From contig OZ316894.1 of the NCBI GenBank assembly GCA_973895155.1, forward strand, positions 2,744,457 through 2,808,456: a stretch of DNA of 64,000 nt, written 5' to 3'. The notes under the pieces are model-generated. The model searched no databases. It was not told the DNA's origin and was given only the letters and a program-made list of their open reading frames with translations. Position numbers and translations under genes: made by a program. Below, one piece after another: positions 17,065 to 52,468 of this stretch (its first letter is position 1; every line of letters starts with the position of its first letter). The stretch is from Marsupella aquatica (taxonomy: Eukaryota; Plantae; Marchantiophyta).

Positions 17065-17895
17065 TTTTATTTATTTTATTTATTTTTTAATTTTTATTTT
17101 ATTCCGCTTGAACCCCACGGAGAGGGCAACCAGCAGGCCAAAAAAGGCATAAAGAGAGACCCTAAGGGGCAAGCAACAAAAGAAGATCCATGATAGTGCA
17201 CATCAGGGGTAGTGGTAGTGCAGCTCCAAGTAGAGGGGAATTGCTTCCCTCATCCAAGTGCCTAAAATACTCCCTAATCTAGACAGCGCAAAAAGTCCTT
17301 AGCACATAACCTACTCGCACTATTTTTATGTGTGCCTATCAGCCGTCCTGTCTTCTTCACCTGTTTAAGTGTTTAACAGAACCATCTCAGCAAGGCATGA
17401 GTTGTAACAATTCTTCTAACTCCCTTCCTGATAAGCACTATTTGTTCTGTCTCTAACAGTCTCAACGCCTTGGTCAACCTATCAAGTTTCCTTCCTGAGG
17501 ATGGGAAGATGGCTGAAGCCACACCCGTGAGATGGTCCATTGTTTTGGCAATGACTTGTAATGGGTCAAAGACTCTATTAGGGGTCAATTCAAAAACCTG
17601 TGTATTCCGAGCATTCCACAAACTCCACAGAACCTGGTAGATTACGAAAGCGCGCAGTGAGTGTATGGAAAGACTACCCTACATAAAACCCAGCAAATCA
17701 GTAATACTTGCAAAGCTCCCAATAAGTCCTCCCTACATCCAGCTTTTGATCTCTGTCCAGACTCCAAGAACATGATAGCAGTGACAAAACAGATGAGGGA
17801 TAGTTTCCATCCTACGGGAGCAAAGTGAGCAGCAACCGTCAGATTTCCCAATTCTTACTGCTCGCGAGCCAGTGCAAATTCCTTGTGCCACAATA
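17065..17895 (-). pseudogene. LINE ORF2 C-terminus (zf-RVT) and 3' tail
   Basis: Reads IVAQGICTGSRAVRIGKSDGCCSLCSRRMETIPHLFCHC and WNARN, continuing ..RAKVFIW from 27966 across the CACTA insertion. Confidence 0.85.
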
Positions 17896-18732
17896 CACTA
17901 CTACACTATTGGCCCCTTTTGCGAACCCATACACATCGCAATCAACAAAGGCCCGATAAATAGAATCCGGCACTTGCGAACTAACACGCATCGCTACACC
18001 ATCCCAAATTGCGAAGTTAAAACCTTCGCATGCGGACCATCGCAACGCCATCGCAACACCATCACAATTTCCTAACCAAATTCCCTCGCAACTTGTCGAA
18101 CACTTCCGAGTTCAAAATCGTCGCAAACGCTTCGCATTATGCCGCACGGTCCTTTGTTACCGACGTTGGTTTTTGTGAAGCTGGAAGGTTCGCTACGTGT
18201 TTGTGATGGGAATGAGTTTGATATTTGCGATGTCGTGGGGTTGGCAACTAGCGAGCCTTATAAGATCACTCTTATGCAAAATAAATTTGATGGGGACTTC
18301 CGATCTAAATTGGATCGGAACTTGTGACTTGGTTTAGGCCAGAAGTTGGGAACCATTTGACTTCGCAACTTGTGATGTTACTTGGTTCTATAATAGCGAT
18401 CCGAGTCATTTTAGTATTTCCTAGTTATCCAAGTTCGCAATGGGTTCGCACTTTCATGGGAACACGACTTTCAATCAATGTTTTGCAAGGGATTTCTCTT
18501 GGCAGTGGACCCAATGTGGAAGGCAAATGTTTTTTATAAGATCCATGCAAGTATATAGGTGGATATACCAAAATGTTAGGGCTTGAATTAAGGAACCCAA
18601 TACACAAGAGGGGTGGCATATCTGATGCCGGCCAAGTCACCCTACTCAACATATCCTATCCTAGCTAAGCTCCAACATGGCTAGTCAGTGACATGTATCT
18701 CATGAGCCCGGTCATGAGATTCTACAAGCTAA

Positions 18733-20797
18733 CTAAAATGGACTCTTCCAACCCCGCTTTGTCGGCTTCTTTGCCGGCTTCTTTGCCGGCTTCTTGCCCT
18801 TATCCTTCTGTGGATGTACAGCCTGGTGCTGACGGGTGTGCGGTGCCTTTCGGCGCTGCTGCTCCTCCTGCTCCTCCTCCTCCTCCTGCCCATCCTCCTC
18901 CTCGTCACCTCCCTCCTGCTCCCCCTCATCATCAACCTGTCTTGATGATGCACGACTACTACCACTACCGCGATGGGATGAACCTACCTCCCGGCTACTG
19001 CCCCTCTCCCTAGAACCGCTGGTAAGAGGAGTAGCCCCCTCATCCTCATCATCACTACTACTTGCGTCAGCACCCGACCCCTCAGGCTCATCCGAATCCT
19101 GCATCCGTACACTTAATCAGTTTCTACAAATTAAAAAGGGTCATCCACAATGTTGGCATCACAATTAATTAAACCTTGAACACCTAGATACTTACAGTAG
19201 CCAACTAGGCATCCACCATCTGAAAGAGGTACTTTCTCCCATGGTCCATCCCTATCTCAATATGTTTCTTGGATATCTTCCTCTTATATTTCCGGTACTG
19301 CCATGCACCATAAAACCAAAAAGTAAACCCATAGGCTAAACCAAAATTCACAATGCGAGAGGCCTTAGGCCTAGAAAAGTTAAACTACTTTGAAAACAAC
19401 TCAAATTCACATTTGCGAAGCTAATGCGTTCACAAAATGCGAAGCCCTAATTTTTGCGAAGGCATTGCGATGGCTTTTGTGATGCGCGTACCTTCGCAAC
19501 AGCATCAGAAAATCCAAAAAGAAAAAAGTGCATAATAGAGTTTGCGAGGCTCTTGCGAACGAATACGCATTGCAATGGGATCGCAAACTGTGATCCCGAG
19601 AGGTTTTTAAAAATGCGCAAATTTCTAAGTGTCAGTCGTGACCTAAAACAATGCACAAGCAAGCACATGAGAGCATGGACATTCATGACATTCCATTCAC
19701 TTGCATTACCTCAACTGAGAAAGTAAGGAGGAAAGAGCTTAGGGAGGAGAGGAGACACTCACAAAGTGGGCCTTGAGACCGGGGAGCCCGCCTTGACCCA
19801 GCTTGTGGACTGGATTTGGGGTGGCTTTCACTCGCTTGGCTGCATCCATGAAACGTTTGGGTGGTCTTCCTTCTTCGTCGACCACCTTTTGCACATCAGC
19901 TACCTTCTGCTCGAGTCCCTTCAGGTCATGGTCAAGGGGGAGCTTCCCGGTCTCCTTTGCTTTCAGGGATCGAGCTAGTGTATCCTTCCATTGTTCCAAC
20001 TTGCGAGTTGCTTTGATTTGCACCTCAATCTTGTAAAATGCATTCCAGATGTCCTCAGTGAATTGGAGGGGCCTGCGCAAATTCCTGTACGATCTCAAGT
20101 CTCTCAGGTGGGCTCTAATCTTCATCCTATCATGGTATCTCATTTGAGACATGGAATTAGAAATCTTGTCTGCCAGCCATTGCTCATCTATGTCAGCTCC
20201 ATTACGAAATGCATCCTTGATCTGATTCATCACTCTCTTTCGCTCTGCCTTCTCAACCTTTCCCCATTGCATGCCTCGTGAGAAATTGCTTGTGATGATC
20301 TGTTTGATGGTGCTCTTAGCCCCTGCATAGGCTAGCTCAGTTGGAGTCCCAGTTGTCTCCAAGGCAATGAATGGAAGCTTTTTCCTTGCATCCTCTTTCT
20401 GACGTTGCTCATCTCGTTGTTTTCGAATTGCATCCCTCTCCTCTCTTCTCTTCTGTTTTTCTATGGCTTGAGGAGAGGCAACTCCCGACTTAGCCCTCTC
20501 CTCCCTCTTCCTTCTTTTCTCTCTAGCCTTCTCCTCAGCTGCGACCCTCTCTTCCTCGTCTCTAGTAGCTTGCCCTGCCACAATTCCTGTTTGCAAAACC
20601 TGGCCTAAAATGGCACTCAAGGAGGCAAGCCCTGCTGGAGTATTCAAATTTACTTCACCCAACTGTGCAGCACTGAGATGTTGGGCTACTAAGTCGCTCC
20701 ATGCATTATGTTGCTTCTCCTGATTTGCCCCATTGCCACTACCACCAGCACCATGTCCTCCACTCCCACCATGCTCTCCACTCCCACCGGTAGCCAT
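18733..20797 (-). pseudogene. CACTA second (TnpA/Ptta-like) gene; exons 20797-19763, 19297-19196, 19098-18733
   Basis: 352-aa first ORF with a charged coiled coil and the motif HKLGQGGLPGLKAHF. Both GT-AG introns are phase 0. Exon 2 has one in-frame TAG. The tail is acidic then basic. The gene is divergent from the transposase. Confidence 0.7.
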
Positions 20798-21239
20798 AGC
20801 TCAATCCCTCTCAGGTCTCTCTCAATCTTCTCCCCGCGGCCCCTTCTCCTCTCGCTCTCCTGATCAAACAAGGAATGAGCTTGATGCGAGCTCCCGCCGA
20901 CACTTACGCATTTCAAAAAAACCTCTTTGCGATCACATTCGCATCACAAACTGCCACCCTATTACCTTCGCAAACGGTCTCGCAACTTGCGATACTTTTG
21001 TGAAGAACATACCCTCGCTAATCCATCGCAACCCGCAAAAACGCCCAAAAATTGTTCTCGGCCTCTGTATTTGCGAAGATGTTGCGAACCCGGGAGGTTC
21101 GCAAAATGCATCTCTAATTTGTGAAGCAATTTGCGAGGCAGGTGATCTCGGTTTAGGGTGGGAAACTATCCCAGGTGTTTAAACGGCTTTACAAGGGTAT
21201 GGCCTATTTAAACCCTTTTAACTCAACATGGATTTGTGA

Positions 21240-22135
21240 ATGGCCAATTAGTTTGAAGAAGAGGATTTTAGGTTGTAGTTGGGCTTTGTGTTTTTGTTTT
21301 TGAATCTTAATTGGGTTCTAATTTAACAAAGGGTTTGAGTTTTAATTTGGGGTTTGGATTTAGAAACGGTTTAGTTTAGGGAGGGTTGTGTTTCAATTGA
21401 AGGGGTTAATTTGGGTTTAGGTTTTAATGTAAGGGTTGGGTTTGACTTTTCACTGATTTCATATTTTTTGCTCTATACATATTTCAGTTTAGGGACATGG
21501 TTTTAATAGAGGGCTTTAAGTTAGGGTCTAAGGTAGGGGTTTGGGTAAGGTTGTAATTGAGAAGTTTGGGTTAGGGTTTAGGGTAGGGGCTTGATTTTGG
21601 TTTAAGTTTAGGGGTTTGGGTTAGGTTTAGGGTAGGGGCTTGATTTTGGTTTAAGTTTAGGGGTTTGGGTTAGGTTTTAAGTATAGGGGTTGGGTTCCAT
21701 TTTAATTCTAAGTTGTGTTTCATTTTTAATTGTGGGGTTTGGGTTAGGATTTTTGGGTAAGGGTTTGATACGTAATGAGGGAATATGGATAGGTAACTTA
21801 GGATGGAGTTTGAGTTAGGGTTTAAGGTAGGGGTTTGAGTAAGGTTTTAGCTGAGGGGTTTGGGTTAGGTATTGAATATAGGGGATCGATGGGTTCAATT
21901 ATAATTCAGGCTTGTGTTTAATTTTTAATTTAGGGATTTGGGTTAGGGTTTAGGGTAAAGGCTTCATAGGTAATGAGGGAGTTTGGGTTATGGTTTCAGA
22001 TGGGGTTTGAGTTAGGTTTTAGCTGAGGGATTTGGGTTAGGGTTTGAATGTAGCAGTTGGGTTTTTAGCGTAGGGGTTTTGGTTAGCTAGGGCTTTGGGT
22101 AAGGGTTTTATATGTTCATGTTTAGGGTAGGTTTT
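21240..22135 (+). repeat. Degenerate telomere-like (TTTAGGG/TTAGGG/TTTGGG) array inside the CACTA
   Basis: G/T-skewed stretch with repeated GGGTTTGGGTTAGGGTTTAGGGTAGGGG-type units between the two divergent genes. Confidence 0.85.
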
Positions 22136-22570
22136 TTTTCTAATTGAGGGTATGCTTTCTTTATTTCATTAACATGAAGGGGTGGAACACTCTAGGAGTT
22201 ACAGGGCACTTCCCCATCGTTTTGAGAGTTTTGGCTAATGCATATGCATTGCGAGAGCTCGGGCATCTGAAAGGTAAAGCTTGTTTTCCTGGCATTTTTT
22301 ATTTGTACTGTAACTTGAGGGTCTATCATCCCTTTCTATAGTTTACATAAGTCATTGCTTAATTCATTGTATATTTGCAGATTTCTCCCTCCTACTTCCA
22401 GATTGGGTTCATCAAGTTTGGACCAAAAGACCTATAGGCATTGCTGAGCCCAGGTCTCATAAAGGTATTTTTTCCTTTCATTTCAGTTTAATATGTCTAC
22501 TTAGGGATTACAAATGATCGTTTTAGCTATTTGTTTACTAACTCGCTATTCCAAATCTTCCACTTGCCAG

Positions 22571-23722
22571 ATGTCTTCATCCTCTACAACTTCCACCACA
22601 TCAGACTCCTCCTCTGATGAGGACATAGATCCTCCTCCTCAGCCTGAAACAGCCGCTCGTCGACCTAGTGGTCCACCACGCCAACTTTGCAGTTGTAAAA
22701 AATGTGTGGGGATGGTTGTCCAGAAGTCATATGTATGTGCAGACCATATTTCTCGATATGGACAACATCGAGGTCTTACACCCGGAGCCTCTTCATCCCA
22801 TACGGTGAGTTGTAAACTTACTATGGTTTATTTTTTATTCAATTAATATTGCTAGCATGATAAGTTGGGGAAGTTTACAATCACTTTGTTGGATTTGTTC
22901 CCTATAGGTATCTAATAGGCCTACACCCACGGCACCAGCACCCTATGTTCCCTCACAAGGAGTTCTAGATGCTATAGGCTCGGCCCTTTCACAAGCTTTT
23001 CGTTTAGTTGCAGCAGAGCGAAGTGGTGTTGGGACAGTTCAGGGTGATGGTATTGTTACACGAGGGAAAAAACGGTCTAAAAGGCAACCTAGAGGGGAAG
23101 TTGATCAGTACACCTGTAGGGTTGATGGTAGGTGGGGACCTTGTACATTCACAGGGAAATGTGTTCCTATCATAAAGGATTGGAATCCTGATTGCCTTGG
23201 TTTGCCATGTGATATAACCTATGGTGAGGAAATAGAGGTTTGGGGAAGACATTGGATTGTCAAAAGTTCTACACTAGGGGAGAGACATGGGTATGAAATT
23301 TTTTCTTGCCAGGACATCATTGTGGATGATATGGGTGGAAAAGGGCGCTCTCAAGATGGACCAACGTTGTTCCCATATGGTGGACCATTTACAAGCGAAG
23401 ACATTGGAACATGCTCCTTGTACAACACCCTGAGTGGAAGACTTATGCATTGGACATGGATACTTTTGATGGTTGCACTAGGAAGTATAGTGAACAACGT
23501 ATAATTGATGGTGATCCCATCCGTAGTGGAAATATAGCCGGTTTCATTAACAGTACTGTGGGGACCCGGCCTAAGCGTAGGAAAAACTGTGAATGGGTTT
23601 TTGTTGATGGTCCCCCTCCAGCACCATATGGGCAGAGATATCATCATGACCATTGTCTACTTGTAGCTACTAGGACCATCAAGGCCGGAGAGGAGTTGTT
23701 TACACATTATGAGTGGGATTAG
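22571..23722 (+). pseudogene. CACTA-encoded SET-domain protein (exon 22571-22804 plus exon 22908-23722; one frameshift at ~23388)
   Basis: Reconstructed frame contains WIVKSSTLGERHGYEIFSCQDI, LFPYGG, YALDM, IIDGDPIRSGNIAGFINS, NCEW and LVATRTIKAGEELFTHYEW, matching SET signature motifs in order. A basic NLS-like RGKKRSKR lies upstream. Confidence 0.8.
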
Positions 23723-26700
23723 GCTTATTTTAGGGATATGTATTATTTATATGTTCCTTCATGCTTTGTGAACATATATTTTGTAAGTTAGGGTTTACAC
23801 CCTAAACCTATGATGTTCTTTCACATTGTATGTTAATAATATGTGTCGATATTGTTTTTGTCTTATGAGGGATTTAATTTGGAGTTTGATTGTGAATGCT
23901 TTATTGTATTGTCCATAGAATGTGCGACCTAGCCAAGATATGTTGCCAAGGAGGTTGAGAGCTACATATGAAGAAATGGGCATGCCACAAGACGGAGTCA
24001 CATCATCAACAGATTCTTCATCCAATGACAGTGACAATGAGGGTTTGGACGAAGGGGCACCTAGGACAGATTTTGAGGTCATGCAGGACCAGGAGACAGC
24101 CATGGATGACTTCATGACAGATTGGTTTGGTGTGGACGCCCGTGTGGACGTTGATGGTGAAGGACGTGGGCCACCCAATGAAGGAGCTCCTCCACCAAAT
24201 GCTGCACATGACCCCCGACCTCAACATACACCAAAAGGTCAACAACAATGGGAAGAAGCGGAGGCACATGCTAGAACACCTATTTATGGGGGTGCTCGTT
24301 TGAATAGACTCTCTACCATCTTGGCATTGATGAATCTTTAGGCAAAACACAAGGCAAGCAATGCCCTTCTATCGGATTTGTTTGCAATTTGCCATGACCT
24401 CATGTTACCTAGTGACAATGTATTGCCAGGAACTTGGAAGGAGGCAAAGAGAGTTCTATCATCCATTGGTATGGAATATCATATCATTCATGCTTGTATG
24501 AATGACTGCATCCTATATCATGAGACCAATGCCAGCATAACTGAGTGTCCAATTTTTCATGAGCCTCGATATGACAACAACATGTTGACGAAAAAGGTGC
24601 CCAGGAAAGCTGTCCGTTGGTTTCCCATTATTCCTCGATTGTTGCATATGTATCGATGTTCTGACTTGGCAGAATTGATGGTATGGCATAAGACACATCG
24701 ATCAAAGGCTGGTGTCATGCGGTTGCCAGTTGACTCCCCTGCTCACAAGCATGTGGAGGCACAATGGCCAGAGTTTGCACATGACCCTCGTCATGTGAGG
24801 TTGGGGTTGGCATCGGATGGGGTCAGCCCACACTCCCTTGGTGGGAAAGGACGCCCAACATCAGTTTGGCCGGTGGTTGTTATGAATTACAATCTTCCAC
24901 CATGGTTGTCCATGAAAAAGGGCTTCTTATTGCTATCATTGATTATCCCAGGTCCATCTAAGGTAAAAAACATGGACACCTATTTGGCACTATTGGTTGG
25001 GGAACTCCAAAAATTATGGGAGGGTGTGTGGGCCTATGATGGTCAAAAAACTACAGGGGGATTACCACGTGTCTTCAAATTGAAGGGAATCAATATGTGG
25101 ACCATGCATGACTATCCTGGTAAGGGGTATGGATTGGTGTTTTTTTTATGTAATAGAGAGTTTGTTTTAAAAGAAGTCCCTCATATTTATGTATGTACAT
25201 GAACTTTTTAAATCCTTTGACTCTAATTGAGAAAGTTATTTTGGTTTGGGTTTGTTGCAGGGTTTGGGTTTGTTTCAGGGTTACAAACTCAAGGGTATAA
25301 GGCATGCTCCACTTGTGGTCCAAGCCTTGAAGATATGGCCAAGTACTCAAGATGGCTTCGCAAGATAATCTACCTTGGGCATACCAAGTTTCTTCCACTT
25401 GGACATGAGATGAGGTCTGACCCCCTTCTATTTTCAGACTTTGACATGATCAATGGTGATGAGCGTGACATACCTGAGCGTACATCCTTTGCACATTGGA
25501 AATCCATAGCTGATAGGGTGGTAGACCCTAACGACCCCATGACATTTGATGGAAGTGGGTTGACGAGGTGGAGTATACTAGCCACATTGCCGTATTGGCC
25601 AGAGTTGAAGATTCATCATTTGTTAGACCCCATGCATATAGAGGGAAATGTTGGGAAGGCTTTGATCAAGCATTTTTATGGAGAAAAGGACCATAATTTT
25701 AGGGAGGCATGCCAGGATCTAGAACGACATCCAGATGTATGGATAACAGTTGATGCATCAACAGGGATGGAACACCGTCCTTCAGCTCCTTGGGTTTGAG
25801 TGTTGGTGAAAGAAGAGAGTTTCGACAACGCATAGGTCAGATGCGGTTTCCTACAGGCTATGGTGCCAATCTCTGGAAAGCTTTTGGGATGGAGGACAGT
25901 CATAAGTGGCCAATGTATTTGAAGACACATGACTATCACCGTTTACTACAACATATACTTCCTGTGGCAATCATAGGCTTGGGCAGTGAAGAAATGCAAG
26001 ACGCCCTATGGTCATTGGGCACTTTGTTGAGATGGATATGCTCAAAGGAAATATATGAAGAAGAGATCCCACGGATGGAGGTATTGGCAGCAGAGGTAGT
26101 GTGCAAGTTAGAGAAGGCCCTCCCTCCTTCCTTCTTTGATTGTCAAGTACATTTACTTGTTCATCTTGTGAGGGAGGTTGCCATTGCTGGTCCAGTGCAT
26201 TGTCGTTGGATGTATTGGTTGGAAAGGTATATGGTTGTGTTAAAGGCTTATGTACGGAATCATGCACGACTGGAGGGGAGCATGGCAACAGGATACTTGG
26301 CAGCTGAGAGTATGTTCTATTGCAGCAACATCTTAGCTACCATTGATCCTAGTTGTTCACGCAGTTGGATGGAAGAGAGAGAAATGGAGGAGGATCGTTT
26401 AACAGGAGCCAAAAAAACACGCTTACTGACCGGAGTGGAGTTGACACAGATGACTACTTTCATGTTGAGTAATAGTACTGTGATGGAAGAATGGAGAGAG
26501 TTTTATGAGGATGCAAAGAGGGAGAGTCGTCGTCCAAGGATTTTTCCAAAGTTCCTTGAGTATATGAGGGAGAAAGTACTTCAGTTGGATGCTATGGTGG
26601 CCCAAGGTGAGAGTGTATCACAATTTCCAGGTATGACTCCTGAGGTTCGAACAATTGTTCATGGCCCTTTGAGATTTGTTCAGACCAGAACAGCAATGTG

Positions 26701-27208
26701 GACACAAGGGAGACATTTCAGGATTTCTGACCTTGATGAGAAGAGGGGTAGAACTTTTGACTGTGGAGTTCAAGGGCAGTTCATGCAGGATTCACAAAGT
26801 AGCCGCCATGACACCAATGTCATCCGAGATGTGGTGCCTCACTATGGGAAGATAGAGGAGATCTTGATTGTATCCTATGATGCGGATACAAAATTTGAAG
26901 AGTATGTCTTCAAGTGTAAGTGGTTCAAAATTCACTTGGTTGGTGAGAATCGCACAGTACTTCTTGATGATTGTGGGTTTACTCGACTGAATACATCAGC
27001 AACTAGCTTTCAACCATCTCATTGGCAAACATCTGAACCGTTTACATTCCCAAGTCACCTTGAGCAGTGTTTCTATATTCCGTACCCACCAGACCCAGAG
27101 GAGTGGTCAGTTGTTATACCGTATGTGCCACGATCTCGTTCCATTATCTCAGAAAAACCTGAAGTTATTATTGTGTCAAACGGAGGAGAGGATGAGGACC
27201 AAGTTTGA
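22571..27208 (+). pseudogene. CACTA Tnp2/TnpD-type transposase; exons 22571-22804, 23919-25119, 25261-27208
   Basis: N-terminal CSCKKC..H zinc motif, IHACMNDC, RLGLASDG, NYNLPPW, HDYPG, LDPMHIEGN, KTHDYH, HLLVHL..GPV..RWMY..ER and KCKWF..EPF. It has an in-frame TAG at 24339 and a frameshift at ~25795. Confidence 0.93.
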
Positions 27209-27962
27209 TGCATCACTAGTAGTAAAACTTGTTGTGAGCGTATAATTGTGATTATATTAACTATCATGGTTTTATTTATATTTACCTATTTATTTTCTTC
27301 TTTTGTCTTACAAACACTTGGACTTTGAAATTTCATTTTACTGCTATACATGCAACCCTAGCCACTAGAAAATTTCTCCTCATGCATGCCACCTTTTTTA
27401 AATCCCTAGCTTATAACCTAAACACATGCATTCTCCATCTTCTAAATTTTTCTCTCAAAAATTTCCATTCTGAAAACTTTGCAAACAACTCTCTTTGTGA
27501 AACATTTTTTGAACCAGACAGGAAGGAATTTCTGAACCTCTTGTGAATCCAATTCCATCGGTACTTGTGATACAAATACGTTCTCAAACTTGCGACCAAA
27601 TTGGCTTCGGTACTTTGCGACCCACCGTTCTTCACAACACTTTCCGAACATAATAGGTTCACAAACCATTTGTGATAGTATTAGTCTCGCTAAATTATGA
27701 ACCAAAATGTATCCAAATACGGTCGCGATGGTCGCGGACTCACAAAGTCGTTGCGAGACAACTAGTATCTAAACGTGTTGCGAAGTCAATAACATCAAAA
27801 CTTAATTGCGATGTATGTAGCTTCACAACGTGAATGTGCGATGGTAAGAGCATGGGATATTGTGATGCGTGTTGCATCACAAAATATCTGAAGGTTCTAA
27901 CATCGCAAGGCCTTTTTGACTTCAAAAAACACCTTCGCAAAAGGGGCCGATATGTAGTAGTG

Positions 27963-30900
27963 ATACACCTGCCCAGATAAAGACTTTTGCTCTTGTGGCC
28001 AAATCGGATGACCATATCCCCTTCCATACTCTGCTCCAATCCTTTTCGCTGAGCGTCACCTGCCAGATAATGTTGAGTCGCTCCCAATCCGAGCCCTTGG
28101 GTCGCAGCATTTCATATACTCTCATGTTTGATAGACTAAAATGTCTCATCACTATTTCGGTATCGCTCCATCGCCACAGTCGCGGATCGGCATCTTGCTC
28201 ACCTGCTCCCACTATCATGCCACAAATCTTTGAATACAAGGACAAGCAAAGGGACCGTCTTGTATCATTTAGGCCCCTTAAACGTCGTAGCTTCCCCGAG
28301 ATATCCTTCCAGTCATTCAGCCTGATAGACCACAAGTCGCTTACCTTGCGAAGTCCCATTCTTCCATAGGTCCTGATTGTCTCCATAATGCTTTCCTCAG
28401 GCAATTGGTGAAAGCCTTGTAAACTCCTGACCAGGTCTTCAAATCCCCAATTACCCGAGATGACACCTGTATCAAGGTAGAGTATCAGGTGCGCTCTGGC
28501 CAGTTCCCATGCCTTCCAGAGTTGGCCAGTGTATGTTAATTTACCAAAGGAGCGTGGATTGCTCAATAGTAATTTATCCGTCAATGAGTAGCAATTCCTT
28601 CGCACCATCTTGTAGTTTCTCCATTTAGTCAACTGTAGATTGACTGCCAACATCTGTGCCCATTCCGAGTGAGGGTCATCAAGTGCTCATGAGAACCATT
28701 TACATAAAAGGGCATCAGAATGACTTCTGAACTCTTTTATGCCCAATCCTCCATCCAATTTAGGTCTAGCAATCTTCTCCCACGCCACCAGTGGGATCTT
28801 ATGTCCTCCAAGCGGATTGTTGCCCCATATGAAAGTCCTGTTAAGCTTGATAAGCTTCTTGGCCAGTGTTCCTGAAGATCATATAAACATCATATGATAT
28901 ATCGGAATTTCTTGTAAGACATGTTTAATCAGAAGTAGCTGCCCTATAAAGGAAAGAAATCGAGTTGACCAAGATGAAAGCCGAGCTCCAATACGGTCAA
29001 GACAGAAGTTATGCAGTTGGGACTCTAGCAGATCAACTCCGAATGGAGCGCCAAGGTATCGCTGAACAAATTCTTTCATGCTAATCGTACAGCCAGTAGC
29101 TTTAAGCCAATCAAGAATTTCATCCATAGCAAGAGGAATGATGATTGATTTCTTGAGATTGAGTTTAGCACCGGTAGTGCATTCATAGTAGTTTATAGCA
29201 CTTCTAGCTTGTTCAAAAGCTTTAGTTGTTGCAGGAATCAACAGTCCTAAGTCGTGAGCAAAAAGTCAAAAGCAGATCTAGAGTGATGAGTTGATTCGCA
29301 GACGTTGTAGCCTCCCTACGGCAATCTCTGCATTGCAAAAGTCCATGAAAGGTTGTGTTGAAATTGCAAAAAGTAGAGGGGAGAGTGGGCAGCCTTGCCT
29401 TACCCCACGTCTCATCTCAATATCTCCTGACCACAGGCCGTTCACCAGAGCTTTAGAACAACCGTTGCTGACTAAGGATTTAACCAGGAAAATGAAGCGG
29501 GATCCTATCCCCAACAGGTTCATGCTTTCCCAAATGTATGAATGATCCACCATGTCAAAAGCTTTCTCAAAATCTAACAGCAAGAAAAGCGTAGGAGTTT
29601 GCGTGATGCTGATCCAGTCGCTTGCAAGCCATGTGAGAGAAATATTTTCCAAGATATGCCTGCGAGGGATGAAGCCAGTTTGCTAAGGGCTAATCATTTT
29701 TGGCAGATAGATCTTCAAACGTACAGCTAAGAGCTTAGCTATAATCTTGTAGGTGGTAGTCAGCATTGTTAACCCTCTCCAGTCACCCAGTCTTCGTTTA
29801 TCCGTCTTCCTAGGGATAAACCGAATAACTCCATCTTTAATCCCAAAAGCCATATTGCCAAATCTCCAAAATTCACAAACCATCTCATGAAATTGCACTT
29901 TCATAAACTCCCAGCATCCTCGCAGGACCTCGGCAATAATTCCATCTACTCCGGGCGCCTTGTCACATGGGAGTAGAAGCAGCGTTTCATAGAGCTCTTG
30001 TTGAGTAGGCAACCTCTCCAATCTACAAATTTCGATAGCTGAGAGAGCAAAATGCGTGTTTTGGCATAATCTTCTCCTCGTAGCAAGATTCTCATTACGA
30101 ACCTCCACAGTAACGTCAAAAGGTGTATAAAGTCGCTCACAGTGCTGTTGCACCTCCCTAAGCACCATGTTCTCATCCCTGATCTCATTCTCGACTTGGT
30201 CAAGTGCAAGCTAGAGGGGTACCAAAGGAGTCCCCAAGGACTAGCTCAAAAAGGAGAGGGAAAGGACTAGAAATGTCATTAAGATTTAGTTGAGCACACT
30301 CCCAAAAAGGTTGGCCACACTTCCAAACAATTGGGGGCACTGCCAACAATGTTGTGCACACTTCCGAAAAGATTGGGCACGCTTCTAGAATTCCAAAACA
30401 TTTGGACACACTTCCAAACATTTGGCATGCATGATCTAACCTTTCAATCTCACCAAAACAATCCTGGCCATTCCATGTAACATTTTGGTCTTTTTGTCCT
30501 CTAGTGATTGCTTTAACCAAGGACCTATGTCCTTTTGGTGGAGAAAATGGAGATCCTTTCAGTACCCCTCTAGCTTGCACTTGACCGCTTCTCCAATCAG
30601 AAGTTCAATGTGTTCTCGCGCCCGTTTAGCCTTCACCATTGAGAAGTAAAACTTAGAGGGTTCATCCCCCTGCCCAAGCCATTTAATTCGTGCCAGCCTC
30701 CTGTTGTGATGTGCTTCTTCCAATTCCATTTCTCTTAAGCTCTGTTCAGTACTAGTGAACTCCTGTAATGTATCCTCAGTGTATTCCTCCATTATCACAA
30801 TTTTCAACAGATGAAGTTTTTCTCTTAGTCTCACCATCTCCTCATCCCAAGGGACCGGGGAAAATTGTAGATCAATGTAGCAGTGGCGGAGTCTCTGTAC

Positions 30901-31795
30901 TGCATCCGCAAATCTAAGGTGTGGGTTCTCTTCACTTCTAGATTTTGCTTTCCATGCAGTCTCCAAAGCATCTATATTCTCCCTTTTCCGAAGGATAGCA
31001 GGGTTTGCCTTAAAATAAGTAGCTCTATGCCCCCTTGATTTTGTAGAGTTCCAAGGGGTCATCCTGAACGTAAGGATGATAGGATCATGATCTGATAATT
31101 AAACCAGTATAGCCATCATGTTGCAACTCTATAATCTCTTCCATCCATTGCCCCTTTTCACTCAAGTAAAAGCGGTCTTATCTGGATTGTATCAGTCTAC
31201 CATTACGTACTCTTCTCCAGGTAAAGTTAGATCCAATTACCTGGCCCAAAATCTCCTGTGCATCTTGCAAGTCAAACCGCAACCTCAGGAGACGCCAAGT
31301 ATCTAGCTCTCGTCCTCAAATACAAGGGGAAGACCCCATAGAATCTTCCAATAACTCAGTCATATTGAAGCCCCCACAAATGATCTATTTCTCCCGAGGC
31401 AGAATATTCAGTAACTCATTCCACAGCAGGACACGCTCGGTCATTGTATTGGGAGCATAGATACTGATCAGCCCAAAACTTCCTTCTTCGTGTTGTAATT
31501 GTATCCAGACTGCTCTTCCTCGATCAAGAGTGCCCGATGCCTGCACCACAAAGGATGGATGTACCAAAATTGCAGTGCCTCCTTTCCCTTCATCAAGAAT
31601 CGCGTAGAAAACTTGGAATAAGGGTAGAATTACTCTCAGAGCATTGTTAAGTCTGAAAGTGTCTACCTTAACCTCCTGTAAGGCCAAAGCATCAATAGGG
31701 GGATGAAGAGAGGCTACCCATTTCTGGACAACTGTTTTTTGATCCAGATTGCAGAGGCCACTAACATTCCACGATGCAAAATTAAAAAGTTTCAT
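27963..31795 (-). pseudogene. LINE ORF2 (APE endonuclease and reverse transcriptase), disrupted
   Basis: SWNVSGL, LQEVK, IYAPN, GDEPSKFYF, KAPGVDG, WRGLTMLTTTYKIIAK, LDFEKAFD, GVRQGCPLSPLLF and RYLG; multiple stops and frameshifts. Confidence 0.93.
30198..30587. mobile_element. ~390-bp MITE inserted in LINE ORF2
   Basis: Perfect 25-bp TIR GGTCAAGTGCAAGCTAGAGGGGTAC (30198-30222 and 30562-30586). CTT flanks both sides. Removing the element restores LIGEVENEIRDENMVLREV. Confidence 0.92.
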
Positions 31796-33065
31796 TCTGA
31801 GATGACAAGCTTAATTCAGGTATCCCCATGTGTCGGGCCTTCTGTATTCCCAATCACCATTTAAGAGTGCTTACGTATGGAGCTCAAGGTAAGTCCTATT
31901 TGGGCCCAGTATGGGATCGCAAATAAGAGCCCGAGCAAGATCTTCCTTCTCCCGAGGAATCAGTGTCTCCTCTGATACCAATTCAGTAGGACTACCTAGG
32001 CGTCGACGTTGTTCTCCAATCGACTTCTTCTCAGGTGTTGTCCATCCATCAGCATCCTGCATCTTGGCATCCGAGGCAAAGTGTAAGGAACGTTGGTTCT
32101 TAGCTTTCTTTTTCCCCTTCTCTTTCTTCTTTTCCTCAGGCGGTGACCTCCTTGCCAGCTTCCTTACCCGGTCTCTCTTGATTTCCATTCTTGAGATGTC
32201 ACTAGTAGAAACCGGGGGGTATTTAGACCCCATTAAACAACTATTCAGTACCGTATAGGACTTGGAAACGGTTGGGAAGGACTCCAGTCCTTTATAGGAC
32301 TATGAGTCGTATGTTTTGTTACTATAATCAACTGAGTCCTTTATAGAACTGGTTTATAAGTCGTTTTATAGACTGGATTTTCAGTCTATTGTAGTCTTTG
32401 TGTGGGTAGGTTTGGTGAGTCTTTTTCAGTCTTTTATGGGCTGCGATGGTGAGTCATTGGGAACGACTCAAAAGGTTATGGAGGGTAGTCTTTAAGTATA
32501 CTTTGTGGGTTTATAAAACGACTAAAGTAGACAATTTGTGGGGTATGTACAAGTCTTTCATGTCAACTGGAAATGAGTGATGAAGACCCCACTATACTAC
32601 TTGGAATGAACTCACTCTTGTGCACAAATAACACATTCCATTCATGTTTTATTGTGTACTTGGAATGAACTCACTCTATAAGGTCCCCATTCACCATGTT
32701 AACATTAGAACCTCACACAAATTTTCAGAAAGCCATCTTCTATACCATGTACACTAATATGAATTCACAGATTCAAACATCATAGACTACAAAGAAGGTC
32801 AATGTGCATTCGTCTATACCATACACACTAATCCTGAAATGATACAAAACAGATTCAAGTATCATAGACAATCACCATAGAGCCATAGTTTGACATCAAT
32901 CACTTGTTTCATATATACAGAATTCAGAAATATCAATGTCACACACAACGGCTCCTTCATCCTCTTTACCAAATGGAAAAATTGGTACAGATATTTCTTG
33001 GATCTTTCCAAGGCAATGTCAAAATGTAACACAATTCACATGATTCTATCTACACTTGCATTCAA

Positions 33066-36000
33066 TCACTGCAGACTAACACACTCTGATGGCCAGAGCA
33101 CAAGAGATCCTACTGCATCTGCAATTATTTCCTGAGGTGGATCATCGTCTCTATTCGGAAATGGCAAATTACAATCAGATACAATCACTGTAGTCAACAA
33201 CACTACTACATGGTCATCCGGGACCACTTTGCCATGGAATTTAGCATGATCCGGTCGCAAAATGCCTGTACCCACACATACCTGCGAGTCATCCTCCCAT
33301 GATAGAAGATTATGGACAGGCTCTGCTGTGGCTATCACCTCCACCTTACCCTGGCTATTTTTCTTGGCTTTCCTGGGTGGCTTATACATGACATTATTCA
33401 TACCTTGGTTGCGAGTCATGACTTTGGCACGAGTGTTTTGTGCTGGTGATCGAGAATTGGCTACACTCTTCTTCAAAGAATCTGCATCCATATTTGACAC
33501 TTCCGATTGTATAGCAGGATTTCCCTGCGACATCATCTCAGTATCTGCCAACATTGTACTTGCTTCAATTGAAACATCTACAATCTTACTTGCATCCAAT
33601 GTTGCTCCCAAGTTTCGAAGTCGCTTCACCCTGCTCCCACTTGGTTGAGAGTCTGTCAACTCTGCATCAACTACAATTCAGTGCATTGTCCAACATAAGT
33701 GAATCACTCATCACATGTGCGCCATGTACATGTCACCAACCACAAAGTTGTCACTATCTCCTTACCATTATGAACAGCCTTCTTCCCCTTCTTTGCCATT
33801 GCCATATCCTCCATGCCTGCTTCTGCTGATCAATAAACACACCACAATATTCAGGTTTAATCTATTAACCACTGAATTGTTTCTCAACAATGGTAGGAGA
33901 GGAATTTAAAGCATCAGCTTACCTGATACCTCCTTGGCTATGGTCACTGAGGCACTGGGCACATCTTTTTCATTGCTCTTTGAATCACCTGATACATCAA
34001 TCATGATGTCACTTCAGATCCCAGTTGATCCAACCAGGTCTTACAGAAAAGATTACCTCCAACCGGCTTAAGCTTCACAAAACTCCATGCACTTTTCAAA
34101 TATAATGTACTGGATCATAGCAGGTTACCTGTCTCAGCAACCTTTTTGCCATTCTGCTTACTGATTACAGGGTCCTTCTCTGCCTCCACTCTTCCTGCAT
34201 TCAAACCATTCATTCAATTCATGAAAACTTACTTCTAACATTTGAACATAGGACACAATGAACAATGGGCCGGTGTCATTTCCATACCTGTGTCAGATTT
34301 GCCAATTCCCTTTTTTGTTAACAAGGGCACACTTTGTACAATGTTGCCCTCATTGTTTGGTTGGGAACCACCCAATTTTTCAATCACAAGCTTGAAATTA
34401 GATTCCACTGATGCAAGAAGGTTCGCTACAGATGCCTCCACAATATCCAAACGATCAGCCAATTTACTTTTCACTCGAGGGAGTCCACACTCTAATGACT
34501 TCAACCGTTCACACATCTATGTGAGAGTTGTAACAGTTCCCTGTCATAACATAGCTTACATATCTCAGATAATTGTCCCCAAGAACTGGTTGCTTACTTC
34601 CTACTACAATTCTTTCTGATGCTCAAGGCCAAATAGTCACAAAACATACAGAATTACAACATAATCACCTGTTTGGAAGTCACACTTGTCACCTCACTCC
34701 TTTGTTTCATGAACTCCTCTCTCACTTCTTGTGCTGATGGTTCTTCACCTGTCAATTTCTTCTGCAATCCACATCAATATACATATGAATGAAACCAAGT
34801 GTTGATTGTCAATGAAAATGTAATAATGGTAGCAAGATGATAAGTTTGAGGCTTACTATCAGGCCTTCATTGGAGCATAACTTCCTCTCCCAGCCTGTGA
34901 CAGGTGTTTCACTTTGTCTCGAGCATTTGACATCAGTTCATTTTTGCTCTGTCCAGCCTTTGACATGAACCCTTTGATTAACCGTGTCCATTGATCCAAT
35001 TCCAATGATGGGGGTGGTGGCATTGTCCTATTAGAACCATTGTCTATCCACATCCTTTTCAACCTATGCCTCTCTTGTTTCAAAATCCTCATTGCATAAT
35101 CTGATATGCAATCTTCAACTGGGCCCTTACCATCATTACCAACATAGTCCCACCGTTCAAGAATGTCCTTGCAGATAGCAGCCCAATCAGCTTTGTTCTG
35201 ACTCCTAAACTCTGTAATGCTCAAATCTAACCAACGCAATACTTCTCCTCTTAGGTCAGAATGCCAACGGTTCTTACCATCACATGTGGGAGTTATCCAA
35301 CCATCGGAATTCACTTCTACTTTACCAAATTTGTTACTGTCTCCTGCCTTGGTACTCCCTGAAGCGCTACTAGGTGTCCCTCCATGGCCTGGTGTCCCCC
35401 CACGGCCTGGGGTCCCTCCACGGCCTGATCTCCCCCCACGGCCTGGATTGCATTGTCCAAACCTCCCTGGAGTCCCTGCACATTTACAGGATCCATTAGG
35501 TAAGTATGAATCATAAATGCTGCTGCCAAATATACACTGGACTTCAGAGCAATTCTGCAATGACCAAGTTACCTCTCCCTTGGCGCATAGATGGTTCTGG
35601 ACCACCTGTCCTATTGCTTTGTCTTGATGAATTAGGGCCGTTTCTCCCGCCTGTGAATGATTGCCTCCTATTTGAACGTGGATGGCCTTTGTTGTTTTTG
35701 TGATTGTCCCAATCAGAGTCTGCATACCAACAGGTACATGCCACACTCATGGACCTGTAAGATAAACTCTTTGCCCTAGCTACACATCAGATAAGTCCAT
35801 ATTGAGCTAAATCTCTACTACCATCACAAAATCACTAGCACAAGGCACTTACTTGTCCAATCATCCTCCTCACCTTTCCATTGCCCTCTGTACCCGTCTC
35901 TACCACGCTCTGGGTGTTCATATTCATCCCATCCATCTTCTGCTCCATCATAGTCATCATCATAATTATCAGGCGTCCCTTGCCAATAACTCTGGCTCCT

Positions 36001-36190
36001 TCTAGGGTATGGATTATGTGATTTCTCTCTAGCTGCCCACCTACCTGGGACTTGATGAGGGCCCTGTGCATCCTGCACAGGTGCATTTTTCTGTGAGCCC
36101 CCTGCAGCTGGGCTCCATCCATATCCAATCTTTCCTCTTCACCCCACTCTCCAAGCCCCATGTCTGTCTCCATGTCATCACCCTCTTCCC
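33066..36190 (-). pseudogene. Multi-exon TnpA-like gene of CACTA-2 (exon structure not fully resolved)
   Basis: Ptta-like segment WTRLIKGF..NARDKVKHLSQAGRGSY, GTPGRGG repeats, and a C-terminal Tnp1/EnSpm-like domain FHGKVVPDDHVVV..LPFPN..AVGSLVLWP. Confidence 0.7.
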
Positions 36191-36371
36191 CCATAGCTTT
36201 TGCAGAGCACCCACAACCAAACAGGGAGAATCAACACACTAAATTCAAAGTATCAATCAATTTCATGCATATCCAACTATCCTAAACATCATTCCAGGCA
36301 GCAATTCCCGTTCTGTGACTCTGTGCAGGTAGTCATCCTCAACCTCATACTTGCCAATCGCCAGCTGTTGC

Positions 36372-37984
36372 CTATTGCAAATCATCAACCTCATCATATT
36401 CCATTTGCCCAGGTTCATCATGTGTCTCTCTCAATGTTAAGGGGATGTAGTCAGTCCCTGCCCGAGTTGGAAGTACAGTCTCATGACTAGGATGCTCGAA
36501 TGCAGCATGGTCATCCAAACTGAACTCTACTTTACTTCCATCCATCCGCCTATTCCGTGCTTGGCTATGGCATACCACCCTCCAGCCATGTGACTCCTCC
36601 ACATCTGGAAAGAAAGCCTGTTCAACTTGGCTAGGGAAAACAAAAGGCTCAGACCATTCTGGTACTCTGGACCTAAAATTGGCCAACAAGAACCCATCAT
36701 GATCACGCTTGATGGTGGCCCTTGGTCTCTGCCACTTTGATTTCACCCATGATTCCTTCATCAATATCACTGGGACACTTGTGTTACCATAATTCAACAC
36801 CCAAATGTTGGTCAACTCCCCCACGTAACCCATCTTCATCCACCCCCTCTGTTCTTCAGAGGTTCTCTGCTCAAACACAGAAATCAAACCACAATCATAT
36901 GATACACAATGGTCACCCTGCTCATCCCTCACTCGATAATGATTTCCATAAGCTCTCATCCGTTTGTAGGTCAGAATAGACAATCGTGGTGGCACAGATA
37001 GAAGATACAAATCCTTCTTCATATCTGGGTGATGTCTACTATGCTCTCAAATTGTCACCCGAATCCACTGCTCGAACTGTGGGAAGGGATCCTGCTGCCC
37101 AGAGTGTGCAGCTTTTTGCATATCATATTCCCTGCAATATGAGGTACAAGCATAGTTAGGTCTAAACAACACATGACAACCTAAGATCACCCTTGGAACA
37201 AACAAGAAGCATCACAACAAAGGCAAGTCAATTCAATCACTCACCTCCACCATGGTTGCATAGGCTCTATGTTTGCCAGCACATATGAATGAGCCTTGTC
37301 TCGAATCACAACAGGCAGCTGAACAGCACGTCCCACACCTTCAACAACCTCGCCACTCACTCCATCATCTTCACCAGATTTCCAAACTCTTGTCATAGCT
37401 TCACCAGACCCAGCCATGTACTCTGTTAGGAATCCCAACGTCTCATCCTTAATGTACCCCAATGCCATGGAAGCCTCTGGCCTGTAGTATGTTCTCACAT
37501 GACCTTTTAACAACTTCATGTATCGCTCCATAGGGTACATCCATCTGGTACTGACTGGCCCATACTGCCCTAGCTCTTCTACCACATGGATTAGGAGATG
37601 AGTCATAACATCAAAGAAAGCAGGGGGAAGTATATCTCCAAGTCACAGAGGACATAAGCAGCATCCTGCTTCAACTGCTCCAATCCTTGGGGATCCCACA
37701 CTTTCACACATATATGGCGAAATACATTGCACAGTCGAAGAATGACATTACAGACTGGTTTCTGCATGAGACCTCTGAGGCATAGGGGCAGAATATGCTG
37801 CATCAACACATGGTAGTCATGTGTTTTCATACTGCCAAGTTTATTCTTTGTAATATACTTCTTGAAGGCACCAGCATAGCTAGAGGGCACTTTCAGACAG
37901 CTCAATCTATACAAGAATGTCTTCCATTCTTCCTGTGTGCACACATACTTAGGGAGCTTGGAACTTGAGAAGTACATTGGGATT
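36372..37984 (-). pseudogene. CACTA-2 transposase, C-terminal half
   Basis: MKTHDYHVLMQHILP, MTHLLIHVVEE..GPVSTRWMYPMERYMK and EPFVFPSQVEQAF; frameshift at ~37605; intron 37244-37132. Confidence 0.92.
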
Positions 37985-40262
37985 TGTGATGCCTAGACAG
38001 GAATCACTCGACCAGTTAAGTGGGTAAAGCAGGAAGGCACCCTAGGAACACCTTAGTATAGGGACAAAACAAGGAAAATATAAACAATTAGGGGCAACCA
38101 TGGAACCCGGGCCGAGGCCGGAGGTAAGGATGCTGAGGGTGAAAACTCGATTAGGGTTAGGGTTAGGGCGCGTTAAGCGTCGGCGGCTAGGAAGGATCAA
38201 CGGGAAGAAGGACCAGCAGAGGAGAGGGGTAAGGAGCGCTTGCAGGAGATGGTGGCTCATTTGCGAGCATGAACTAGGCAGACGACTACGGGAGGCCAAC
38301 TACTGTCAGCTGCTTAGGCAAGCACTCGGGGAGAGAGTAGATACCGACGATCGACCTAAGGAGGGTATGAGCAACGTCAATCAAGCGGCACATTTCTGGG
38401 GATGCCTGTTCGAACGGGCAACTGAGTACATCAAGACTTACGAGGACGAGGAATCAGAAAGGGCAGCTCGAGAACGGCAGGAGCTCGCTCGATTGTGGGA
38501 GCTGCAAAAGACGGCTTTCTTAGGAGGCGAATCATCAAGGACGAGTTCCTGTGGACGCCTACTTCCAATCAACTCGACCATCTTCTGTTTTGCAAAGACA
38601 GCGTCGTCGGCATCCGAGAGGCCATCAAGAACTGCAACGACATACACTGGGAATTAAAGGGTAGCACGGAAAGGTGGACCCAGGCAACGGTGCTAGGAGA
38701 AACCTCCACGGTAGCAGAGATGAAGAGGAAGGGAGCCGTCAATGATGAAGCCACCCCGACAAAAAGAACGAGGTCGGCGGCACCAAAGAAGCCAGCCGAG
38801 CAATAGAGCAGGAGGCAGGGAGAAGCCGAAGAGGAGGAGGTCGATCCCATCAAGGCCATTCCAACCAGGGATGACACCTGGAAGGGCTGGGCGGCAACCC
38901 TACCGGTGGAGGTGCAACTACATTTTGCATGGGAGGAGGATGCATGCTTTACGGCCATGCAGACCAAGAAGTACCAAGGCTTCATGGCCGGATCCGGCTT
39001 AGAGGCCTTTGTAAGATTACCATGGCTGAAGCCGGAGGTACCGGAGTCAGACCTATTAGAATTCGTGGGGTCATGGGAACCCGAGACCAATTGCACGAGG
39101 ATATATGGGAAGAATTTCTATCTTACTCCCAAAGTAATTGCCGAAGTGTTTGGCTTGCCGATAGGCAATAAGACCAAAGTTGATACCAGGAAGACCTTGC
39201 CTGACAAGGAGTTCCGGTCGTTCCCCGGGCCATCAACGAAGAATGGCTTCTTCCGGAACACCTGCACCAACCCGCACATAGGAGAGATGATCGACTTCTT
39301 GCGGGTGACCATGCATTGTAACTTGCCGAGGGCAGAGATCGGCAAGGCACAGGTCTATCTGGCAGAGAGGCCAGACCCAAGCCGGGACTACAACGGGTAC
39401 CTCCTCAACCAATTGAAGAAGATCTTAAAGGAGGAGCAGTAGGTAATCGGCATGGGGAGCGTGTCGCGGCTTGGCTATCACATGCCGCTGTTGTGCCGGT
39501 ATGCCAGAGGTCAGACTTTTGCCCCAGTACTTCCCCTGCAGGTAAGGGCACCCGAGGAAGCTCCAACGCCGAGGCCATTGGCTGAGAAGCCTCAACCACC
39601 TGTTAGCCCTACGATCGAGCAGGTGTTTAGGCCCAGGAAGGAGGACTTGCCGATGCAGCAACCAGGCATGCAGAGTCTGCTGAAACTACTGGAGAAAGAA
39701 AAGAGATCGGCATCGGCAACGACTACGGCAACGACAACAATGCAGGACACTACTACAGAGGTAGGCCTACACCGGCTCACAAGAGAAAACCCCTTTGCTG
39801 GAGACAAGGAGAGAATCAGGCCGGAATCCAAGCCAGGTGTTCGAATGTATGTGGGAGTCTCAAGCTCCGAATCTGAGGCAGAATTGCCTGAAGCTCCTAC
39901 CGACGAAGAGGAGAGGGAGAAGCCGGACGTCCAAGAAGTAGAGGAGGCAGTGGAGGACTGCAGCCATGATAATTCCGGCTATGGGTCGGACCATCACGTT
40001 CCAGGAGTAAGGACCTGTGGCCGGTTTGTCCCCACACTTCCAAGGGTAGTGCGAGGGGACCCCAACCAGCAGGGTAGCCCTGAGTCTCCCCCACCAGATG
40101 TTGCTCCCCCGAGCTTTGACGGCATAAAACAGACGGTGCAGGAATTTCAGGAGCGAATCAGGCAGGAAGAGGAGGCAGCCCTGGCTAGGGAAAAGGATTT
40201 ACCAGGAGGAGATTGGCCGGAGGACATCAGGCGGCTAGCCGAAAAAGGAAGCAAATACCCCC
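37985..40262 (+). mobile_element. Truncated LTR (same family as 42447-46118) with disrupted ORFs; right boundary approximate
   Basis: Begins TGTGATGCCTAG and is colinear with the reverse complement of 46118-44575. Confidence 0.8.
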
Positions 40263-51944: not shown

Positions 51945-52468
51945 GGCACTGATACTGCTCGATATAACCGGATCTAGGATGAGATCTGGGAGGAAACTTT
52001 GCCTGAAACTATCGGAAACCTTTTTCCATTCCAGAAAACATCGGACCCCTCGGATAAAATGACGAAGGAGAGGTCGATATGGTTGCCTTCGGACAACTTC
52101 CGATATGTTTACTATTGCACCTAGGTTTCGAACCAATATCTTTCCCAATATCATGTCCGTTGTTTTAAATATCAGACCATGTCCGTTTGTTTTTCCAACG
52201 AGCCTCAGGTCCGAGTGTATTTGCATCGGAAGCTAAAGCCTTACTTTTGTCGTCTCTTTGCAATGCTATTAATTTTGGACATTGTCCAATAGTTCTGGTA
52301 TGGGATATGGTTTGCGATGTAGTTTACATCGGTACCTTTATTTCCGATATATTATGAATCGGAAATTATGATGGTTTTAATATCGGAATTTGTCCGATGC
52401 ATTCAGTTTTGGACGGGTAAAAGAAGCCGCAATTTGAGTATCGGAAAGAGACCAAAAATGTACTAGTG
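51945..52468. mobile_element. Terminal fragment of a third CACTA element
   Basis: Ends ..AAAATGTACTAGTG (reverse complement CACTAGTAC) with dense TCCGA/TCGGA subterminal repeats, and truncates a LINE ORF1. The other end was not found. Confidence 0.8.

Follow-up and report, generated by a model that had tools for sequence, protein, structure and literature searches.

Can a plant transposon encode its own chromatin-modifying enzyme as an alternative exon of its transposase gene? This question is raised by a CACTA element of the liverwort Marsupella aquatica, which lies in a stretch of 64,000 nucleotides of contig OZ316894.1 that was analysed as a whole and is here called the window. A first-pass annotation, made from the letters alone, had read a SET-domain exon inside the transposase intron of this element, and had proposed that the family may make its own methyltransferase, joined to the zinc motif of the transposase. 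The SET exon between exon 1 and the transposase exons is a real, old and selected feature. The proposal as such is also supported, by a hit to the SET profile, by purifying selection and by the lack of a near-identical host gene among the sequences compared, and we infer that the SET protein modifies chromatin at the element. Our reading is that in this CACTA lineage one transcript gives rise to two proteins, either a zinc knuckle with a SET histone methyltransferase that counters silencing, or the same zinc knuckle with the transposase. The probability of this reading is about one half, and the mechanism of the SET form is plausible but unproven.

The first exon, the SET exon and their relatives

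The first coding exon (22571-22804) has 78 codons with the motif C40-x-C42-x2-C45...H59 and ends in the donor GTGAGT, as it had been described, and it has a weak similarity to the Transpos_assoc profile PF13963, below the cut-off (E 0.019). The AG acceptors at 22908 and 23919 are, as claimed, both in phase 0 and match this donor. Behind the acceptor at 22908 the motifs GYEIF, YGG, GNIAGFINS and IKAGEELFTHY were found again, and the C-terminal frame matches the Pfam SET profile PF00856 with E 5.5e-7 (30.4 bits against a cut-off of 22.4). The stretch RGKKRSKR, noted earlier as resembling a nuclear localisation signal, is present and basic, but its letters are not conserved among relatives. The frames behind 23919 are those of a Tnp2 transposase, with Pfam matches to PF02992 (E 1e-39), PF13960 (E 2e-33) and PF13952 (E 1e-7). 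Judged from the conserved in-phase splice sites and from annotated gene models, exon 1 is very probably spliced alternatively to SET or to TnpD.

The window copy itself is dead in both proteins, as had been presumed. The frameshift near 23388 is a deletion of one nucleotide, located by means of sister DNA, and the window protein becomes 349 amino acids long when the gap is bridged by an X. The Glu of GYEIF is read as an added lesion of this copy, since Gly is found at that position in 101 of 105 family rows. The transposase is interrupted by two stops and a change of frame (Table 1).

A search with the SET exon's C-terminal part gave 23 longer proteins, and the named ones, from Calypogeia fissa and Sphagnum, were 66-84% identical. 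Gene models joining exon 1 and SET are annotated in C. fissa (351 amino acids) and in S. jensenii, S. troendelagicum, S. balticum, S. fallax and S. compactum (343-348 amino acids), and Riccia sorocarpa has models with a knuckle-like part and SET, or with SET and Tnp2. The named close relatives are all mosses and liverworts. A profile search extended the family to 561 proteins at E <=1e-5 (the best 120 of the 561 inspected) and to 346 clusters at 50% identity and E <=0.001 (the best 150 of the 346 inspected). Among ten clusters that were looked up, four came from R. sorocarpa, one of them a SET+Tnp2 model, one from Calypogeia and one from Ginkgo. The family is multi-copy in Sphagnum, where clusters have 360 and 112 member sequences. 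In the tree the window copy belongs to a supported group with Calypogeia and Sphagnum proteins, yet as a separate family, and its SET core is 80% identical to that of a liverwort protein (P0002) and 73% to that of a peat moss protein (P0008). With a synonymous distance (dS) of 0.7-1.9, at which synonymous sites approach saturation, such identities could be a hint of horizontal transfer between moss and liverwort lineages. The top match in the Atlas was a SET cluster from Streptophyta. No relatives were found in viral contigs and prokaryote genomes by pattern-based scans with two alignments, which do not decide for or against a donor among viruses or bacteria.

Some members of the family look different. 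P0270 and P0287 have the knuckle and SET in a single continuous frame, and the 2.1-kb Logan contig that carries P0270 may be a spliced transcript. The Ginkgo protein P0345 (Gb_21150) and P0352/P0417 from C. fissa have unrelated Cys-rich N-termini and long branches, and by these sequence features they are possibly copies recruited by their hosts.

The layout was also followed in 44 metagenome loci, 31 close and 13 distant. Of the 22 close loci that have at least 280 bp downstream, 20 have a TnpD that starts 143-185 bp after the SET exon; the other 9 of the 31 were too short downstream and were left out of this count. In both exceptions (L028 and L029) the SET is truncated, and another CACTA end comes after it (L028:2119, L029:2050). 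A GT comes directly after exon 1 in all 13 loci where the pattern located the exon end, and the acceptor AGs are present there too, but the search patterns themselves included AG. Five of the 13 distant loci have at least 1.2 kb downstream, and Tnp2 was found there in two, L032 and L042. In the first of these, whose SET is only 37% identical, the knuckle exon has its donor at 610 and is followed by acceptors at 686 and 1565, all of them in phase 0; its twin L033 has a CACTA end upstream. L042 has knuckle, SET and Tnp2 in the same order as the window. The other three, L036, L038 and L040, form part of a low-GC clade and have no transposase behind SET, so that their link to CACTA is only presumed.

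Selection, fold and active site

The ratio of non-synonymous to synonymous substitutions (dN/dS) was estimated by the Nei-Gojobori method, with synonymous sites partly near saturation. Between the window copy and 10 close loci it was 0.14-0.25 for the C-terminal and 0.14-0.29 for the N-terminal part of the SET exon; for exon 1 (6 loci) it was 0.22-0.30 and for TnpD 0.02-0.16. Purifying selection on the SET exon is thus found between families. Young Sphagnum-type copies had values of 0.55-1.03 in five of six pairs, L001 compared with these young copies gave 0.37-0.41, and the low-GC clade had 0.23-0.35 in all five pairs. Constraint between families together with neutral decay within them suggests that the SET exon is maintained through the copies that transpose, and the same pattern speaks against passive capture and also against a host function of the ordinary copies. 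Intact frames occur among the relatives, in annotated models and in 5 of the 16 full-length SET exons of close loci.

The identity of the domain was confirmed by profile, AlphaFold and Foldseek. PF00856 was matched by 22 of 25 relatives at E <=0.1, and the AlphaFold model of the intact relative P0001 (204 amino acids, 81% identical to the SET core of the window), made with 110 rows, is a SET fold with a predicted local distance difference test score (pLDDT) of 91.3 and a predicted template modelling score of 0.86. The full-length protein, with 25 rows, reached a pLDDT of 37. Searches of the PDB by single sequence and shallow profile gave no match. With the P0001 model, Foldseek found SET8 (E 7.5e-8, probability 1.00), and VIA-align gave ties between Set1, EZH2, SET7/9, SET8, NSD2, LegAS4 and MLL1 (Z 12.3-10.6, 16-28% identity), with root-mean-square deviations of 2.3-2.9 over 119-135 residues. 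The top matches of both programs are SET and PR domains only, and viral SET proteins score alike. The identity is at most 28% to any solved SET chain, and at most 24% to solved SET domains of host type.

An active-site census was made on up to 110 aligned rows; the roles of GxG and the catalytic Tyr are stated in PMC10653858. The GxG glycines are present in 98 of 104 and 101 of 105 rows, the YxG aromatic residue is Tyr in 89 and Phe in 20 of 109, and the Asn of the NH motif (96/108), the Glu of GxEL (92/97) and the terminal catalytic Tyr (86/95) are also retained. These residues are 88-100% conserved in the family, and the copy in the window has a disrupted GxG. In place of the NH motif's His, a Ser, seen already in the first-pass annotation, is fixed in the family (98 of 108 rows). 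The best solved sequence match, LegAS4 (E 2e-8), is likewise without this His (YINFS) and is a trimethylase of H3K14 (PMC10653858), which implies that the His is unnecessary for activity.

A post-SET cysteine cluster and class-specific partners mark the plant SUV39, ASH1 and TRX classes. Among 194 collected proteins of this family, 176 have a tail with fewer than two Cys, and the window subfamily ends three residues beyond the catalytic Tyr, as the reported absence of post-SET cysteines would have it. Neither histone-reader, pre-/post-SET nor class partner modules were found beside PF00856 in the family proteins scanned, and the N6-methylase profile PF01555 had no match in 25 close or 8 distant ones. 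A host SET class with a Cys-rich post-SET region was rejected on these grounds, as there is no Cys cluster and only PF00856. From its residues, the SET form is probably a catalytically active enzyme dependent on S-adenosylmethionine, and by analogy a histone is, by a small margin of confidence, the favoured substrate.

Possible roles of the SET protein

The two proteins likely work as follows. One promoter would drive exon 1 together with two short untranslated exons. If an acceptor of the 22908 type is used, splicing would yield a nuclear zinc-knuckle-SET protein, from a message that ends before the transposase, and skipping of the SET exon would yield a transposase carrying the same zinc knuckle. 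The knuckle would direct either product to the protein-bound motif arrays of the element, where the SET form would methylate a histone tail, and the element would stay transcribable or excisable and escape silencing. The targeting step, by the shared knuckle and the TTGCGA repeat arrays, is a tentative prediction, less probable than the activity or the substrate.

Several observations weigh against this reading. No substrate can be read from the fold, since the tied matches are found among enzymes for H3K4, H3K27, H4K20, H3K36 and H3K14. The mark made by the closest-looking solved enzyme serves a pathogen, which leaves a repressive or a non-histone role open. A non-aromatic residue stands at the Phe/Tyr switch in 193 of the 194 collected proteins that have the motif, a redundant set, which suggests multiple methylation; this suggestion is weak, because many SET proteins without an aromatic switch are described in PMC3874154 as exceptions to the Phe/Tyr rule. 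The cofactor pocket may need a partner, as the protein ends so shortly after the catalytic Tyr. Intact SET exons are a minority among the close loci, the annotated models of exon 1 with SET may be ab initio predictions, and a weak search for longer proteins that include the beginning of the TnpD exon had no hits and retrieved no annotated form in which exon 1 skips to TnpD. The second gene of the element, described below, is a candidate TnpA by position and a motif only.

An active methyltransferase could also have a non-histone substrate, such as the element's own TnpA or TnpD or a silencing protein of the host, and thereby tune transposition. SET7/9 is a broad non-histone methylase and ties for the best fold match (Z 11.8), and the lack of a histone-reader or pre-/post-SET module beside the SET domain points the same way. 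However, the solved enzyme with the best sequence match acts on histone H3, and the isoelectric point of the SET core, about 6-7 in six of eight members checked, fits the binding of a basic tail, if weakly, so we regard a non-histone substrate as unlikely. A self-limiting switch, in which transcripts that use the SET exon are lost to the transposase and a repressive mark keeps the copy number tolerable, would agree with a SET exon that is terminal and mutually exclusive with the transposase exons, with EZH2 among the tied fold matches, and with the silencing of transposons by PRC2/H3K27me3 in liverworts and hornworts (bioRxiv 10.1101/2022.10.24.513474). The high copy numbers in Sphagnum, given above, do not favour it, and chromatin accessories of transposons have been read in print as anti-silencing (PMC12730594); we consider this switch somewhat less likely than a non-histone substrate. 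The exchange of NH for NS, the missing post-SET zinc cluster and the very short C-terminus would suit a dead SET fold that reads histone tails or acts as a decoy against methyltransferases of the host. A pseudo-enzyme is expected to lose its catalytic residues; here, at an overall identity of 18-79%, GxG, YxG, the Asn of the motif and the terminal Tyr are each retained in 88-96% of the rows, which makes a dead fold the least probable of these three.

Far less probable than any of them is a fragment of a host SET gene that was passively captured and drifts within the intron, an explanation already largely refuted. CACTA elements do capture host fragments, and the dN/dS of the young copies is near 1. 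Against this stand the dN/dS of 0.14-0.41 between families, the layout retained at 37% SET identity in L032, the breadth of the family with its 346 clusters (of which the best 150 were inspected) and the low identity to solved host-type SET domains. A near-identical host SET gene was sought, and among solved SET chains nothing came closer than the 28% given above. A recent passive capture is rejected by the cofactor and catalytic residues that have been kept.

The reading of a SET histone methyltransferase and a transposase made from one transcript can be extended. An ancient CACTA lineage of non-flowering land plants would then toggle between transposase and its own histone methyltransferase by splice choice, with the shared knuckle as address and a protective mark on its own copies; in the low-GC clade SET would be wired to a DNA-binding protein, and hosts such as Ginkgo would have recruited copies as genes. 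That all of this holds together is doubtful, and clearly less probable than the core reading.

The element and its comparison with known systems

The complete element is 10,067 bp long (17896-27962) with inverted ends of about 30 bp. It has what is expected of CACTA/EnSpm: inverted repeats starting with CACTA, a 3-bp duplication, a Tnp2/TnpD transposase and subterminal repeat arrays. Its features are listed in Table 1.

Table 1. Features of the CACTA element, with positions in the window.
Feature	Position	Strand	Remarks
Left target-site duplication ATA	17893..17895		3-bp duplication of CACTA/EnSpm; ATA on both flanks
Left terminal inverted repeat, CACTACTACA..GGCCCCTTTTGCGAA	17896..17925	+	begins CACTA; paired repeat ends
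Left subterminal TTGCGA/TCGCAA cluster	17919..18435		motif counts
Divergent second gene, likely last coding exon	18736..19116	-	similar acidic frame in L005
Internal TTGCGA/TCGCAA cluster, presumed intron of second gene	19413..19581		motif counts
Divergent second gene, main exon	19760..20797	-	TnpA-like by position and a motif only
Internal TTGCGA/TCGCAA cluster between the two divergent genes	20927..21131		motif counts
Degenerate telomere-like (TTTAGGG) tract, spacer of the two divergent genes	21280..22120	+	expanded in window copy
Likely 5' untranslated exon	22381..22464	+	further donor at 22274; L008 has recognisable counterparts of both
Coding exon 1, Ser-rich start and C-x-C-x2-C...H zinc knuckle	22571..22804	+	phase-0 GT donor
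103-nt intron up to SET acceptor	22805..22907	+	donor/acceptor reading
SET terminal exon, 271 codons when read through	22908..23722	+	one nucleotide lost near 23388; Glu in place of the second Gly of GxG
AT-rich stretch, presumed 3' end of SET message and remaining transposase intron	23723..23918	+	ends CATAG
TnpD (Tnp2) exon, phase-0 acceptor	23919..25119	+	premature stop at 24339
TnpD last exon (PF02992, PF13960, PF13952)	25261..27208	+	stop at 25797; frame change near 25830-25855
Right subterminal TTGCGA/TCGCAA cluster	27590..27935		motif counts
Right terminal inverted repeat	27934..27962	-	paired repeat ends; CACTA end at 27962
Right target-site duplication ATA	27963..27965		matches left ATA

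The motif TTGCGA/TCGCAA occurs 37 times in the 10-kb element, as compared to 14 times in the other 53.9 kb of the window, with clusters at either end, in what is presumed to be the second gene's intron, and between the two divergent genes. The spacer of the window copy has 10 TTTAGGG units, and the spacers of 10 related loci have 0-2.

The second gene is on the minus strand, head to head with the SET/transposase gene, and consists of the main exon and later exons. It is kept in five close loci at 48-64% identity, with a proportion of non-synonymous differences of 0.22-0.29 against 0.64-0.79 for synonymous ones. Its product has no match in Pfam, NCBIfam or the Atlas, and the name TnpA-like therefore rests on position and a motif. 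A complex prediction for the exon 1 knuckle and this product, in which alignments were not used, scored 0.00 and speaks neither for nor against an interaction. In the low-GC, high-copy clade (L036:2070-3510, L040:1990-3420, L038:1200-2404, L035, L037, L039) the SET exon appears to be internal, with a GT after the region of the catalytic Tyr, followed by exons that end in H-x-G-x-GGY like the divergent gene of the window. The clade may have a SET-TnpA fusion, weakly supported (20 of 1000 shuffles), and two additional comparisons, library scans included, found nothing further on this idea.

Elsewhere in the window, LINE-like remains and a fragment of a Mutator-like element (MULE) transposase are found at 27922-31810, 40230-41303, 52369-53493 and 57377-58573. 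The LINE-like remains have DUF4283 and a zinc knuckle, with endonuclease- and reverse-transcriptase-like frames judged by eye, and one of them is the insertion site of the SET-bearing CACTA. A fragment of a second CACTA (33069-37929, minus strand) has the 3' half of TnpD (DUF4216), with its 5' side cut off and more open frames head to tail after it; a profile search there gave no SET. A long frame of a leucine-rich repeat receptor-like kinase at 2089-5610 (minus strand) is likely a host gene.

SET cargo in DNA transposons is already a known kind. SET genes are carried by HarbingerS and by Phytophthora MuDR families (PMC12730594), and bioRxiv 10.1101/2025.02.11.637652 mentions captures of SET genes by Helitrons and describes PAG2, an N6-methylase-SET accessory gene of red-algal Plavaka, which belongs to the EnSpm superfamily. 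Plavaka is thus an EnSpm-superfamily DNA transposon with a long-term PF00856 cargo, proposed to modulate chromatin, and in this it resembles the window element. The layout differs: PAG2 stands as a gene of its own, joined to an N6-adenine methylase, in a cassette of three genes next to the Plavaka transposase, and the window element has its SET as an exon flanked by the first exons of a plant Tnp2 gene, with no DNA-methylase domain. The SET proteins of HarbingerS, oomycete MuDR and Helitrons are also proposed to act against silencing, but they belong to other superfamilies and hosts and are accessory genes, not a splice form sharing the N-terminus of the transposase. An identity with HarbingerS was rejected, as the transposase in the window is Tnp2 and not of Harbinger type.

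The first-pass annotation knew of no such arrangement in CACTA elements. For the layout this stands: no description of a SET exon that uses exon 1 of the transposase in a plant Tnp2-type CACTA came up in the literature searched, a search to which Repbase Reports, most subscription journals and bioRxiv supplements did not belong, and the available parts of PMC11982613 and PMC12477816 contain no description of a SET exon in a Tnp2 transposase gene. For SET cargo within the EnSpm superfamily it does not stand, since PAG2 is published. New here are the family that is not of Sphagnum type, the layout kept at 37% identity, the protein annotated in Ginkgo, the low-GC clade and the active-site census. 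Many annotated "SET domain-containing proteins" of Sphagnum, Riccia and Calypogeia are transposon genes, which would inflate the counts of host SET genes.

The sources available list transposon SET proteins in several superfamilies without reporting tests of activity, and cite VANC of the VANDAL MULEs as the sole proven self-acting anti-silencing system. The SET protein would likely be, as VANC, an anti-silencing factor encoded by the element, and both systems have short motif arrays in non-coding parts; VANC is no SET enzyme, and the TTGCGA arrays of the window are putative binding sites. LegAS4/RomA of Legionella is similar over 130 residues (28% identity, Z 10.8), lacks the NH His and has a non-aromatic switch, and it shares the absence of a post-SET cysteine cluster with compact SET enzymes such as SET8 and the viral SET proteins. 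It differs in that its ankyrin domain is required (PMC10653858). The family described here is a compact candidate with a well folded core of about 200 residues and many near-intact copies in sequenced bryophytes, so that whether a transposon writes its own histone marks becomes a directly testable question.

The maize element En/Spm makes TnpA and TnpD from one alternatively spliced transcript. The window element is also a CACTA and is predicted to make two proteins in the same way, but the alternative product is TnpA in maize and a SET protein here, where the TnpA-like gene is on the opposite strand, head to head. From the first exon that the two would have in common, one can see how a single element could direct both its cutting enzyme and a chromatin writer to one target.

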